64,000 nt of DNA from contig JAVZLQ010000003.1 of the NCBI GenBank assembly GCA_038883655.1, positions 64,001-128,000 on the forward strand, in the 5' to 3' direction. The stretch is from Candidatus Bathyarchaeia archaeon. Its GTDB lineage: Archaea; Thermoproteota; Bathyarchaeia; Bathyarchaeales; Bathycorpusculaceae. The position numbers were made by a program, and so were the translations under genes. The notes under the pieces were generated by a model, which searched no databases, was not told where the DNA came from, and worked only from the letters and a program-made list of their open reading frames with translations. Positions 17,980-21,730 of the stretch are shown piece after piece (positions within the stretch are counted from its first letter, which is position 1; each line of letters starts with the position of its first letter).

Positions 17980-18045
17980 AAACCTGCAAACAAAAACAGC
18001 AAGAAATTTTAGTAAATCCGATTAAATAGTGAGTTAGGAGTGCTA

Positions 18046-20721
18046 ATGGCTCAGCGTCGACTGGACGAATTTTCAACCCAAGAAAAGACAAAGGAAGCTG
18101 AAGCGGAAGCTCTACCCTTCACAGAAGCCATAAAAAGGGAAAAAGAAAAACAGGCATCCTCGCCACTGGCGCCAGAAAATCTGCCACCATCATACTTTGT
18201 TTCAGCCACGTATGATGGGAAGACTGGAAAAGCCCTAATCAAGCTTTACGAGGCAGTTTCTGGCAAAATTTATTTTTGGTATGACAACACTGGGCATAAG
18301 CCTTATTGCCTCACAAATCTTTCACCGTTGGAACTCGAAAGAATAGACCGCTTAAAGCATCATCAAGGCTTTGACCATTTTGAGATTGTGGAAAAATTTG
18401 ACCCCTTATTGGATAGGACTGTGAAAGTAACAAAGATTGTAGCTAAAGACCCCTTGGCGATTGGCGGACGCCCAAAAGGCTGCATTAGGGACATAATCCC
18501 AGAAGACTTCCCAAAAGTGGCTGACACACCAATAGCCCAAGAACAAATCAAAGTTTGGGAATCAAAAATAAAGTACTACCAATCATACATTTACGATAAC
18601 GACCTGTGGCCTGGAATGCTTTACGAAGTTAGAAACGGCAAACTCGTCATGAAAAGTTTGGATGAACCAGAAAAAACTGTAAAGCAGATAATGAGCCTAT
18701 TTGAAGGTGCAACAGAAGAGGAGCTGCGGTACATTGAACAGTGGGCAAGGCTTCTGGAGTATCCAGCTCCAAAGTTCCGCCGCGTAGCCCTAGACATAGA
18801 AGTTTACTCGCCTATCCCAACGCGTATGCCAGACGCCCGCGAGGCAGACTATCCAATTGTTTGCGCTTCGCTTTACGGTTCTGATGGACTAATGAAAGTA
18901 TTACTTTTGAAGCGTGAGGGAGTCCGAGAAGGAACCGAACATTTGCCTGCTGACGTAAACCTAGAATATTTTGACTCAGAAGAGAAGCTTATAAGAGCTA
19001 TTTTTGAAGTTTTGTGGGATTATCCTTTCGTCATAACTTTTAATGGAGACGATTTTGACCTGCGTTATTTGGCGCATAGAGCAGAAAAGTTCGGCTTAAG
19101 AAGGGACGAAATTCCGATAGATGTTGGCAAACGCGTCTGCCTCCTAAAATATGGTGTTCACATAGACCTTTACAAGTTCTTTTTCAACCGTTCAATCCAA
19201 ATTTACGCCTTCAACAACCGCTATAGGGACGTAACCCTCGACGATGTTGGCAAAGCCCTAATCGGCATGGAAAAAATACGCCTCGAAAAGAATTTAGGCG
19301 AATTAACTTACACGGAGCTTGCGAAATACTGCTTTAGAGATGCTGAAATAGCCTTCAAACTCACAAGCTTTGAAGACGAGTTGGTAATGAAGCTAATTCT
19401 GGTTTTGGCTAGGATAAGCAGCATGCCAATGGAAGACTTGAGCCGCCAGGGAGTTTCACGTTGGATAAGGAATTTCCTGCACAGAGAGCACCGAAGAAGA
19501 AACATGCTTATCCCAAACGCTGAAGAAATCCTAGCCGCGAAAGGCAAAACCGCCACAAAAGCCATAATAAAAGGCAAAAAATACAAAGGCGCAATAGTCG
19601 TCGAGCCAGTGCCAGGCGTCCATTTTAACGTGGCGGACTTGGACTTCCAAAGTCTATACCCATCAATCATAAAAGTTTGGAACCTAGGCTACCAATCAAT
19701 ACTATGCCAACACCCAGAATGCCGCAGCAACCTAATCCCAGATACGCCGCATTGGGTCTGTACAAAAAAGCGGGCATTAGAAAGCCTCTTGATAGGTTCG
19801 CTTAGGGACTTGCGTGTGCGCTGGTACAAGCCAAGGTCGAAAGACAAGAGCCTTCCAAAGGAGCTCAAAAGCTGGTACAACCCAATCCAAGGCGCACTAA
19901 AAGTCATTTTAAACGCAAGCTACGGCGTCTTCGGAGCCGAAACATTCGACCTTTATTGTCCGCCAGTAGCGGAAGCAACAGCCGCCATAGGAAGACACTC
20001 AATAACGCAGATAATCAACAAAGCTAAAGAACTTAACATCCAAGTGCTTTATGGCGACACGGACAGCATATTCCTAAAGAACCCTTCGAAAGAACAGATT
20101 GAAGAACTATCAAAGTGGGCAGAAAGTGAACTGAAAATGAGCCTAGACGTGGATAAAATCTACAGATACATTGTTTTCAGCTCGCGTAAAAAGAACTACC
20201 TAGGAGTTCTCGAGGATGGAAGCGTAGACGTCAAGGGATTGACGGGCAAGAAGAGGCATATTCCACTGTTCATTAAGAAGGCCTTTGACAAAATGAAGGA
20301 GCGCCTAGCCACGGTGAAAACGCCAGCAGACTTCGAAAAGGCCAAAAAAGACACGTGCGACATAATCCGTGACTGCTATATGCGCCTAAAAAGACGAGAG
20401 TGGACAAGCCTAGAAGAACTAGCCTTCAACGTAGTCTTAGGCGAAGAACCAGAACGCTACACAAAAACAACACCCCAACACGTCAAAGCAGCAAAAATCC
20501 TAAAAGAGGGAGGATTAGAGCTTAAAGCTGGAGACCTCATAAGCTTCGTCAAAGTCATCAAAGAACCACACGTCAAACCAGTGGAGTTGGCGACAAACAA
20601 CGAGATAGACGTTGACAAGTACATTGCATATCTTCACTCAACATTCGATCAGGTTCTGGACGCGTTAGGATTAGACTTTGACGAAATAATAGGGTTAACA
20701 AAGTTAGAGCGCTTCATGTGA
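18046..20721 (+). CDS. polB1: Family B DNA polymerase (PolB1 type)
   Basis: ALDIEV, FNGDDFD exonuclease motifs; DFQSLYPS, KVILNASYG, YGDTDS, KKNY; TACK PolB1-type N-terminus YFWYDNTGHKPYC; no intein. Confidence 0.95.
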   Translation: MAQRRLDEFSTQEKTKEAEAEALPFTEAIKREKEKQASSPLAPENLPPSYFVSATYDGKTGKALIKLYEAVSGKIYFWYDNTGHKPYCLTNLSPLELERIDRLKHHQGFDHFEIVEKFDPLLDRTVKVTKIVAKDPLAIGGRPKGCIRDIIPEDFPKVADTPIAQEQIKVWESKIKYYQSYIYDNDLWPGMLYEVRNGKLVMKSLDEPEKTVKQIMSLFEGATEEELRYIEQWARLLEYPAPKFRRVALDIEVYSPIPTRMPDAREADYPIVCASLYGSDGLMKVLLLKREGVREGTEHLPADVNLEYFDSEEKLIRAIFEVLWDYPFVITFNGDDFDLRYLAHRAEKFGLRRDEIPIDVGKRVCLLKYGVHIDLYKFFFNRSIQIYAFNNRYRDVTLDDVGKALIGMEKIRLEKNLGELTYTELAKYCFRDAEIAFKLTSFEDELVMKLILVLARISSMPMEDLSRQGVSRWIRNFLHREHRRRNMLIPNAEEILAAKGKTATKAIIKGKKYKGAIVVEPVPGVHFNVADLDFQSLYPSIIKVWNLGYQSILCQHPECRSNLIPDTPHWVCTKKRALESLLIGSLRDLRVRWYKPRSKDKSLPKELKSWYNPIQGALKVILNASYGVFGAETFDLYCPPVAEATAAIGRHSITQIINKAKELNIQVLYGDTDSIFLKNPSKEQIEELSKWAESELKMSLDVDKIYRYIVFSSRKKNYLGVLEDGSVDVKGLTGKKRHIPLFIKKAFDKMKERLATVKTPADFEKAKKDTCDIIRDCYMRLKRREWTSLEELAFNVVLGEEPERYTKTTPQHVKAAKILKEGGLELKAGDLISFVKVIKEPHVKPVELATNNEIDVDKYIAYLHSTFDQVLDALGLDFDEIIGLTKLERFM

Positions 20722-20723
20722 CT

Positions 20724-21200
20724 TTATTCTGCCAAGAGCTTTTTCGTCGCTTTTACCAGAAAATATCCGAGAACGTTGATGCTGATGACGGAGCCTATGC
20801 CTATCCCCAACCACCAAATCCACATCTCCATCTCCGTCAACACTGCCAAATACGTTCCAACAATAAACGTTATAACAGCAGTCGCTACGACGCACCCAAG
20901 AAATTCCCTTGAATATTGACCTAATTTCCATGCCAGCACGCCAGCCAAAAGGTTTGCCAAAGAACCAAAGGTAACATCTGCCAAAATGCTTGGCATAGGA
21001 CTTGCAACATTAGCTACGACGCTTCCAAGAGTGACGCCAATAACCGCAGGCCACCCGAAAACCATAGACAACGGAATTAACGCATCCGCAACTCTAACCT
21101 GAACCAATTGAAAACTTATGCCCGCCAAAGCCAAAACAAGAACAGCATATACAGCCGTGAAAATAGCTGTCAAAGCCAATTCTTTACTACCAAATTTCAC
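20724..21200 (-). CDS. queT: QueT family (queuosine/archaeosine precursor) ECF S-component
   Basis: A.YAVL..ISF..VQVRVADAL..L..FG...GVTLG..AN...D..FGSLA pattern; GTG start at 21200 after GGAGGTGG. Confidence 0.85.
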   Translation of the reverse strand: MKFGSKELALTAIFTAVYAVLVLALAGISFQLVQVRVADALIPLSMVFGWPAVIGVTLGSVVANVASPMPSILADVTFGSLANLLAGVLAWKLGQYSREFLGCVVATAVITFIVGTYLAVLTEMEMWIWWLGIGIGSVISINVLGYFLVKATKKLLAE

Positions 21201-21202
21201 TT

Positions 21203-21262
21203 TTCCACCTCCTACACCGGGGTTTATATGGCGGAACGGGTGGAGGCCCACTCACCCGCCAT
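21203..21262 (-). promoter_or_regulatory. Structured queT 5' leader, candidate riboswitch
   Basis: AUGGCGG/CCGCCAU and AGUGGG/CCCGUU stems with a CCUCCA loop complementary to the downstream GGAGG SD. Confidence 0.55.
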
Positions 21263-21292
21263 TTTGCGTCATGAAAAATTCTCTAGTTGCTA

Positions 21293-21730
21293 TTAAGCTT
21301 TGCCTTCTGTTTCGGCTTGAACCTTAACGAGGTCTGTGACTGTTTCAGCTACTTCCACGTTCACGTCTTCGATTGGCAGTCCTCGTCCCTTACTTGAGAA
21401 AAGCAAATCTTGTGGTGGAGGCGGCGTGTTTAGAATTGTCGACAATAGGTACATGGCTGTGAACGCGTGCTGATAAACCCTATGGAAAACGTATGGCACT
21501 TTTGTTTCTGGATCTGCTTCTAACATCTTGCTTATTTCGGAGTCCTTGCCAGTTAATGTTGCCGTACCTTCAATTTCAAATTTCACCACACTTGGCTTTG
21601 TAGAGAGGATGAGGCTGAAGCTGACGGCGACAAATTGGCTTTTGCGCTCTTTCTCTTCAAGCCTTGCCTTAACATCAAAATTTATAGATTCAGCCCCACC
21701 AGTCTTAACGTCAAGCCTCACACCTAACAA
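21293..21730 (-). CDS. Hypothetical protein (possible SecB-like beta-sheet fold); 5' end ambiguous
   Basis: Alternating beta-strand pattern followed by a helix and PPPP; frame stays open upstream to 21799 without a canonical start. Confidence 0.65.
   Translation of the reverse strand: MLGVRLDVKTGGAESINFDVKARLEEKERKSQFVAVSFSLILSTKPSVVKFEIEGTATLTGKDSEISKMLEADPETKVPYVFHRVYQHAFTAMYLLSTILNTPPPPQDLLFSSKGRGLPIEDVNVEVAETVTDLVKVQAETEGKA

Follow-up and report, generated by a model that had tools for sequence, protein, structure and literature searches.

A conserved pseudoknot leader of queT in Bathyarchaeia, a candidate archaeal riboswitch for a 7-deazaguanine precursor

Introduction

According to a 2024 review (PMC11625349), preQ1 riboswitches, of class I, II or III, control bacterial queT genes; the three preQ1 classes it treats are bacterial without exception, and the stem "archae" appears nowhere in its text. 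A 2017 survey reported that archaea employ very few known classes of riboswitch, mainly those for thiamine pyrophosphate and fluoride. Here we describe the leader of an archaeal queT gene that lies in a 64,000-nucleotide stretch of Candidatus Bathyarchaeia archaeon (assembly GCA_038883655.1, contig JAVZLQ010000003.1, positions 64,001 to 128,000 of the forward strand), the whole of which is referred to as the window. An earlier note, made from the letters of this DNA alone, had read the leader as a translational OFF switch that senses a 7-deazaguanine. Comparison across genomes indicated that the leader is almost certainly a structured cis-regulatory RNA and very probably a pseudoknot, specific for queT, that sequesters the Shine-Dalgarno (SD) sequence. 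The riboswitch interpretation is supported as far as computation reaches.

The closest described systems are the three bacterial classes, which are summarized here from two papers. The preQ1-III riboswitch (Faecalibacterium type) lies before queT and acts as a translational OFF switch in which an anti-SD sequence in a hairpin loop pairs with the downstream SD (PMC11602147, PMC11625349). It is described as about 100 nucleotides long, with a separate HLout pseudoknot aptamer, a three-way junction and a P4 hairpin that carries the anti-SD, and as bacterial, from Ruminococcaceae and metagenomes. The preQ1-II riboswitch (the COG4708 or queT motif of Streptococcaceae) also precedes queT, and its whole SD supplies a strand of a pseudoknot helix; it folds as an HLout pseudoknot whose four pairing regions, P1-P4, include a hairpin placed between stem and SD, and is given as occurring in Bacillota only (PMC11625349). 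The preQ1-I riboswitch (types I-III) is an H-type pseudoknot of about 34 nucleotides in which an A-rich tail after the P1 3' strand leads to the SD, and in which UC or AC precedes the P1 3' strand, the C reading the ligand (PMC11625349).

Results and discussion

Architecture of the queT leader

The leader of the window lies on the minus strand, directly 5' of queT, and is read on window positions 21262-21198. Its parts are listed below together with the gene and the putative promoter. Column numbers refer to A3, an alignment of 100 members of the element that includes six loci derived from a pattern search, and R1 is a covariance model built from 51 sequences.

21194-21264, minus strand: whole conserved leader element, matched by R1 (G000:C3:85194-85264, 88.4 bits, E = 3.4e-21)
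21291-21297, minus strand: TATA-like box CTTAATA, recognized from sequence, with a putative promoter role
21256-21262, minus strand: 5' strand of the outer stem P1, 7 bp, with a conserved core at 21256-21260 whose pairs are 96-100% paired
21253-21255, minus strand: unpaired junction bulge G-U-G, columns 10-12 (G 98%, U 99%, G 92% of 100 members)
21247-21252, minus strand: G-rich 5' strand of the inner stem P2, 6 bp, for which either 21235-21240 (register a) or a section of the anti-SD (register b) can serve as partner
21241-21246, minus strand: apical loop with the anti-SD CCUCC, pseudoknot columns 88.8% paired
21235-21240, minus strand: 3' strand of P2, CCCGUU, with an invariant G at 21237 and an invariant U at 21235 (columns 40 and 43, 100%); columns 38-39 are 94-99% C
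21228-21234, minus strand: 3' strand of P1, pairing with 21256-21262
21213-21227, minus strand: single-stranded tail, then variable linker, with invariant A's at 21227 and 21223-21225, C's at 21219-21221 and GG at 21217-21218
21205-21212, minus strand: Shine-Dalgarno GGAGGUGG, 3' strand of the pseudoknot, identified by sequence, pairing and a duplex-energy test
20724-21200, minus strand: queT, GTG start, S-component of a 7-deazaguanine precursor transporter (PF06177, residues 8-154 of 158)

The earlier note had described a 7-bp outer stem, a 3-nt bulge, a CCUCC loop complementary to GGAGG within the SD (21205-21212) and an A-rich linker (21223-21227), and all of these were present on the minus strand. 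The tail also has a CCCC run, followed by GG, and four A's separate the SD from the GTG start codon (21198-21200). The bases of the proposed 6-bp inner stem were present as well (3 GC, 2 GU and 1 AU pair in register a), but its register is contested by an alternative that fits about equally well. The downstream gene had been named queT, and its product matched PF06177 over profile positions 1-141 of 141 with 97.7 bits (cut-off 33.7) and an E value of 9.7e-28. The segment had been called GC-rich, and the GC content of the 62-nt element was 0.597 compared to 0.434 for the window, a level reached by 0.6% of all 62-nt windows. R1 found a single credible copy of the element in its own genome. Folding of the single sequence was only modestly above chance: the 35-nt hairpin folded at -17.6 kcal/mol (z -2.1), a value that 7 of 200 shuffles equalled or bettered, and a 111-nt stretch gave z -1.8. 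The real case for the element is the comparison across genomes.

Relation to the known preQ1 classes

The element was compared with each of the described classes. With preQ1-III it has only the placement of an anti-SD in a hairpin loop in common; in contrast to that class, it is archaeal, about 65-70 nucleotides long and built on a single nested stem system. With preQ1-II it has a way of working in common, the SD being placed in a pseudoknot helix, but this is not membership, and its tail of 15-20 nucleotides is without a conserved hairpin, the columns being unpaired or invariant. It has an A-rich tail 3' of P1 and an H-type topology, but compared to preQ1-I it is about twice the size, with an extra hairpin nested in the loop on which the loop strand sits, an invariant CCC after the A's, and UU (columns 42-43, 94% and 100%) before the P1 3' strand.

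A cmscan search of window positions 20900-21600 against all 4227 families of Rfam 15 (E <= 10) returned no matches. When 20 divergent members were searched against Rfam 15 (E <= 5), only four chance matches were obtained, none of them to a preQ1 family (which we take to be RF00522, RF01054 and RF02680 for preQ1-I, -II and -III, respectively). The earlier note had seen no match to the preQ1-I or preQ1-II consensus by eye, and this was borne out, as no preQ1 family model matched. Because there is no Rfam match, UU takes the place of UC or AC, the tail has no hairpin and there is no separate HLout aptamer, the element belongs to none of preQ1-I, -II and -III.

Conservation and association with queT

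QueT was present in 54 of the 61 genomes of relatives, and the element was found at 29 of the 30 queT loci examined in them. At 27 of the 30 loci a near-identical leader lies immediately 5' of the start codon; at two further loci, L018 and L021, it lies before the first queT further upstream, and L016 alone is without it. The QueT proteins encoded at the 30 loci are only 35-68% identical to the QueT of the window, and the leader is far better conserved than this protein. R1 matched 93 of 151 sampled Bathyarchaeia genomes (71 of the 94 of high quality) and 29 of 151 genomes sampled across the phylum. Outside the class, members of at least three families were matched, f44 (9 of 15), f56 (3 of 3) and f60 (2 of 2). 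Five genomes with no match were checked, three of which were also without a QueT match, while two have a queT with an unrelated leader.

The gene that follows the element was identified for each R1 match. A total of 97 matches were considered, and 94 remained after the two weakest had been set aside along with one that lies at a contig end. All 94 credible matches with downstream sequence have a QueT homologue immediately 3', which was recognized in 84 cases by phmmer with the window protein (E of 5.5e-9 or better) and in ten by an in-frame match to the QueT hidden Markov model (E of 6e-21 or better). Outside the class, QueT lies immediately 3' in 15 of 17 matches. The remaining two were regarded as false positives: L242 (24 bits) precedes a secreted protein that no Pfam model matched, and L243 (23 bits) falls within a coding region that runs the opposite way. 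The two weakest matches in the class (17.2 and 13.2 bits) and a match of 13.9 bits in the window's own genome were rejected as noise.

Unusual arrangements were seen at a few loci. At L192 and L197, two of the 94, the motif is intact but the queT after it looks frameshifted, its sequence being spread across two or three frames, as in pseudogenes or assembly errors. ACG stands after the SD at L007, L022, L024 and L171 where relatives have a GTG, TTG or ATG start, and ATA or a similar codon occupies the queT start position at L167; non-canonical initiation or a shifted start may account for these ACG and ATA loci. The leader at L016 (1380-1510, genome G054) begins with a P1-like hairpin and an ACCCC word; a longer insert comes next, along with a local hairpin in which GCCUCC is paired to a G-rich SD. 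It may be a rearranged variant. As a smaller variant of the element it was dropped, being a single case that is not common to G112 of the same genus.

The pattern analysis covered 150 loci, that is, the 30 queT loci and at least 120 from a scan of contigs, and gave at least 147 regular-expression matches, at least 54 of which also have the A/C-rich tail word. Among the matches listed, record titles included Bathyarchaeia metagenome-assembled genomes (MAGs) from bog, sediment, hot spring and termite gut and one Methanomethylicota MAG, and all 54 matches with the tail word were archaeal except one (L093, Gemmataceae), which was dropped as chance. Bacterial pattern matches, in which the tail is missing, were likewise attributed to chance in GC-rich DNA. 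Because the pattern dictates its own letters in every sequence it retrieves, the statistics rest mainly on copies found via QueT or via the model.

The element was also recovered from metagenomes. Contigs of four hot-spring runs stack on window positions 21177-21257 with a summed depth of 204-1844, compared to 0-31 just downstream in the queT bins (20610-21176). The flanks of the stacked contigs are of several kinds, around 21180-21211 and 21260-21264, which indicates that many co-resident genomes share the element at 95% identity or above. The pile-up reflects sharing at the level of DNA, not expression; among the data sets listed as containing this stretch none was of RNA, and two runs labelled metatranscriptomic were flagged as probably DNA. 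A single variant was seen in the element among co-resident strains, A>G (plus strand) at 21216, in a variable linker column; it occurred in all four runs.

Covariation of P1 and the loop-SD helix

In A3, 87.9% of the cells of P1, P2 and the pseudoknot taken together were paired. Column shuffles gave 81.9 +/- 0.5%, none of 500 reaching the observed value, and partners slid along the alignment gave 47-57%. P1 is proven by compensatory change: pair 5-48 is GC in 70 members, AU in 20, GU in four and UA in two, and pair 9-44 is GC in 90 and CG in ten with no unpaired cell. The conserved core of P1 is 5 bp, because the two outermost pairs of the window form in only 41-56% of members.

The earlier note had called for conservation and covariation before other archaeal queT genes, including the pairing of loop and SD, and both were found. 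The loop-SD helix (columns 23-29 with 75-82) was 88.8% paired, and six of its seven pairs change on both sides. Much of this both-side count comes from two common forms, CCUCC/GGAGG and CCUCCC/GGGAGG. Rarer, independent matched pairs of loop and SD were CUUCC/GGAAG, CCCUC/GAGGG, GCCCCC/GGGGGC, GCCCUCC/GGAGGGC, CACCUC/GAGGUG, CUCCCA/UGGGAG and UCCGAC/GUCGGA. Several of these variants fit a canonical SD poorly; it is thus the mRNA, and not the ribosome, to which the loop is matched. In a test that is free of the alignment, the duplex energy of cognate loop and SD averaged -12.19 kcal/mol compared to -10.46 +/- 0.16 kcal/mol for permuted partners, and none of 5000 permutations was as good as the cognate set. 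G.U pairs in P1 and in the pseudoknot were tolerated only in the mRNA sense.

Contrasts that take kinship into account were counted on a FastTree tree of 96 QueT proteins. For P1, the partner followed in 3 of 3 contrasts at 9/44 and in about 5.3 of 6 at 5/48, with none in the opposite direction. For the pseudoknot, it followed in about 5.8 of 8 at 26/79 (0.2 against), about 4.6 of 8 at 27/78 (0.3 against) and about 2.5 of 4 at 29/75.

The tail is the most conserved part of the element. Columns 56 and 58-60 are A and columns 63-65 are C in 99-100% of members, and columns 67-68 are G in 94-95%. About 15 unpaired positions are invariant across the class, and such invariant unpaired nucleotides would be typical of a ligand-binding pocket.

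Inner-stem register and points against the pseudoknot switch

A number of observations weigh against an SD-sequestering pseudoknot that acts as a switch at queT. Three genomes have a queT without the element (G054 at locus L016, G112 and G185). Part of the pseudoknot signal comes from the two common registers, which are one inserted C/G apart, and in a few members (L207, L212 and L174) the complementarity of loop and SD is poor. The tree contrasts, which are uniform in direction, are few in number as independent events, with a median p of 0.03-0.5 per pair.

The inner stem also belongs here. Register a, the P2 of the earlier note, was 91% paired and hardly varies in A3, and register b, which joins that same G-run to the 3' half of the anti-SD, was 88% paired, with a few double changes (UA in 72 members, CG in four and GC in one at columns 15-30). 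The two registers fit the alignment about equally, with one change event at columns 15/30 on the tree, and the nested minimum-free-energy fold contained register b in 69 of the 100 members and register a in two. At L005, L067/L185 and L114 there is almost no P2 past three pairs. In the commonest form zero nucleotides lie between the P2 5' strand and the anti-SD, and on steric grounds a full 6-bp P2 and a 6-7-bp pseudoknot may not be able to coexist. It is possible that registers a and b are alternative states.

The last of these points concern the tail. A mutual-information scan of all column pairs found no covarying partner for tail columns 56-68, in a tail whose lack of variation leaves covariation blind; by eye, the G-U-G bulge, the P2 G-run and the SD were considered as partners for its CCC run. 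Nested folding predicted a weak pairing between the SD and the invariant CCCC of the tail for 93 of the 100 members, in a hairpin that, at -5.8 kcal/mol, was no better than shuffles (z -0.5).

Promoter

The earlier note had pointed to CTTAATA as a TATA-like signal upstream of the stem. Among 99 homologous leaders with 70 nt of upstream sequence, an A/T-rich peak lies about 25-36 nt upstream of the P1 core, with 76-88% A/T between -35 and -27 compared to 45-70% elsewhere. A TATA-like hexamer was present 28-45 nt upstream in 73 of the 99, most commonly at 30-35 nt. CTTAATA sits 37 nt before the P1 core, in agreement with this family pattern. Archaeal transcription starts about 25 nt after the TATA box, and the transcript is predicted to begin a few nucleotides before P1.

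Metabolic setting, mechanism and ligand

QueC makes preQ0, which the archaeal tRNA-guanine transglycosylase (arcTGT) uses as its substrate, and QueC itself acts on 7-carboxy-7-deazaguanine (CDG). A true QueC (E of 1e-20 or better, 209-231 bits) was found in 13 of the 61 relatives, and all 13 queC genes lie directly 3' of a motif-bearing queT. This makes the tie to 7-deazaguanine metabolism stronger than in the earlier note. R1 was used to scan eight of these 13 queT-queC loci, with scores of 72-84 bits at seven and 25.9 bits at one; the other five were evident from the surveys of QueT and of R1 matches. In G052 (L021:273-2590) and G060 (L018) the order is motif, queT, queC (209.5 bits), queT and an HD-domain gene. 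G020 has an additional, weaker QueC-like match elsewhere in its genome.

The genome of the window, which is 93% complete, encodes a TGT of the arcTGT type (286.7 bits). A profile search of this genome found no QueD/PTPS, and against QueC it gave weak PP-loop matches only, the best at 28.7 bits compared to about 210-230 bits for a true QueC. Because arcTGT is present, QueD/PTPS was not found and the QueC matches are weak, the organism probably depends on an imported 7-deazaguanine precursor. PTPS/QueD was also not found in five of five QueC-bearing relatives (95-100% complete), in searches that did not include QueE or QueF. Judged by gene content, the Bathyarchaeia of this order seem to be auxotrophic for 7-deazaguanines and to salvage preQ0 or CDG, and pathway knowledge suggests that the imported precursor is probably preQ0 in queT-only loci and CDG where queC follows.

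In the mechanism proposed here, the queT leader would form an H-type pseudoknot composed of the outer stem P1, the inner G/C stem P2 and the single-stranded tail, with the C-rich apical loop of P2 pairing with the SD 30-35 nt downstream. The ligand pocket would probably consist of the invariant A and C residues of the tail, the likewise invariant G-U-G bulge and, where P1 meets P2, the conserved G.U pairs. As a translational OFF switch, it would respond to a sufficient supply of 7-deazaguanine precursor when the ligand locks register a together with the loop-SD helix. The SD would then be buried, initiation blocked and synthesis of the importer stopped, as would be that of QueC where queC follows queT. 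In the ligand-free state, the G-rich strand of P2 would instead take up the 3' half of the anti-SD (register b), and the SD would be free or only weakly held.

A conserved, structured and covarying leader that is tied to the genes of one pathway, as described here, has the generic marks of a riboswitch. We consider it likely that the leader is a small-molecule riboswitch, and rather likely that the molecule it senses is a 7-deazaguanine. preQ0 is our first choice of ligand, held with slightly better than even confidence, because both locus types lead to it in the end and arcTGT uses it as its substrate.

A riboswitch for a 7-deazaguanine or purine other than preQ0 (preQ1, CDG, archaeosine base, queuine or guanine) appears unlikely. 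In its favor, the 2024 review describes bacterial QueT as a preQ1 transporter (PMC11625349). In queT-queC operons the imported compound is probably CDG, since QueD/PTPS was not found in five of five such genomes, and preQ1 production is possible given that QueF was outside the search. Yet the same leader stands before queT-only and queT-queC loci, and the compound common to both is preQ0.

We regard it as improbable that the leader is read not by a metabolite but by a macromolecule, such as arcTGT or another protein of the pathway, or an uncharged or unmodified tRNA whose elements the leader would mimic. The pathway ends in a modification of tRNA, at G15, and the invariant unpaired residues would suit a protein-binding site. 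Within window positions 21235-21252, AGUGG (the P2 5' strand) and GUUC (the P2 3' end and P1 3' start) may resemble consensus words of the tRNA D-loop and T-loop, but these two strands pair with each other in register a, and mimicry of a tRNA element is only remotely conceivable. A regulator gene is not consistently adjacent, the upstream neighbors varying between loci, and a small pseudoknot (about 65 nt) that buries the SD is the architecture of known small-molecule switches of queT.

Less probable still is an element that works without a ligand, either an RNA thermometer or a constitutive attenuator or stabilizer that damps queT translation. Thermometers sequester the SD by base pairing, and the metagenomes that contain DNA of this stretch are from hot springs. 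However, thermometers keep their pairing and not their sequence, whereas about 15 unpaired positions do not vary across the class here; the element is confined to queT and queT-queC leaders; and its members include Bathyarchaeia of bog, sediment and termite gut, so that there is no tie to hot habitats. Finally, a DNA-level operator or promoter, with an inverted repeat for a transcription factor in place of RNA structure, is scarcely credible: P1 is an inverted repeat and the A-rich word after it, about 30 nt before the start codon, could pass for a TATA box, but G.U pairs are tolerated in one sense only, covariation of loop and SD needs both on one transcript, and the A-rich word was rejected as a TATA box or operator, as no more than 55 of 100 members carry a T in its second place and the real A/T peak lies upstream of P1.

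A literature search, with supplements and subscription-only papers outside its scope, found no description of an archaeal preQ0 or preQ1 riboswitch or of a Bathyarchaeal riboswitch. The SD-sequestering leader of queT is probably a new class, in a new domain of life, of a known regulatory principle. We lean slightly toward the fuller proposal that it is the first riboswitch class native and specific to archaea and a fourth, structurally distinct sensor of 7-deazaguanines, tuned to preQ0 and not to preQ1, which controls salvage by queT and queT-queC across the Bathyarchaeia and neighboring Thermoproteota, apparent auxotrophs. If this is true, archaea evolved metabolite-sensing RNAs of their own, and a single metabolite family has a fourth independent RNA solution. 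It would also offer structural work a compact new pseudoknot fold and serve to flag the salvage of 7-deazaguanines among uncultured Bathyarchaeia, which seem to be without QueD and mostly without QueC and keep arcTGT. The element makes SD-based translational control in these archaea directly testable.

Neighboring sequences

Upstream of the leader lies an open reading frame (ORF) of 145 aa (21293-21730, minus strand), the stop codon of which is inside CTTAATA and is overlapped by that box (21291-21297). A Pfam search with this ORF gave no match. Its C-terminal end and the spacer are kept in genomes of the same genus (L010 and L012), and the upstream neighbors of other relatives differ.

A second pile-up of metagenome contigs was seen at 20448-20528, with a summed depth of 106-679 compared to about 0-50 beside it. 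It sits in the C-terminal part of an ORF for a family-B DNA polymerase (18040-20721, plus strand) and is common to many co-resident genomes.

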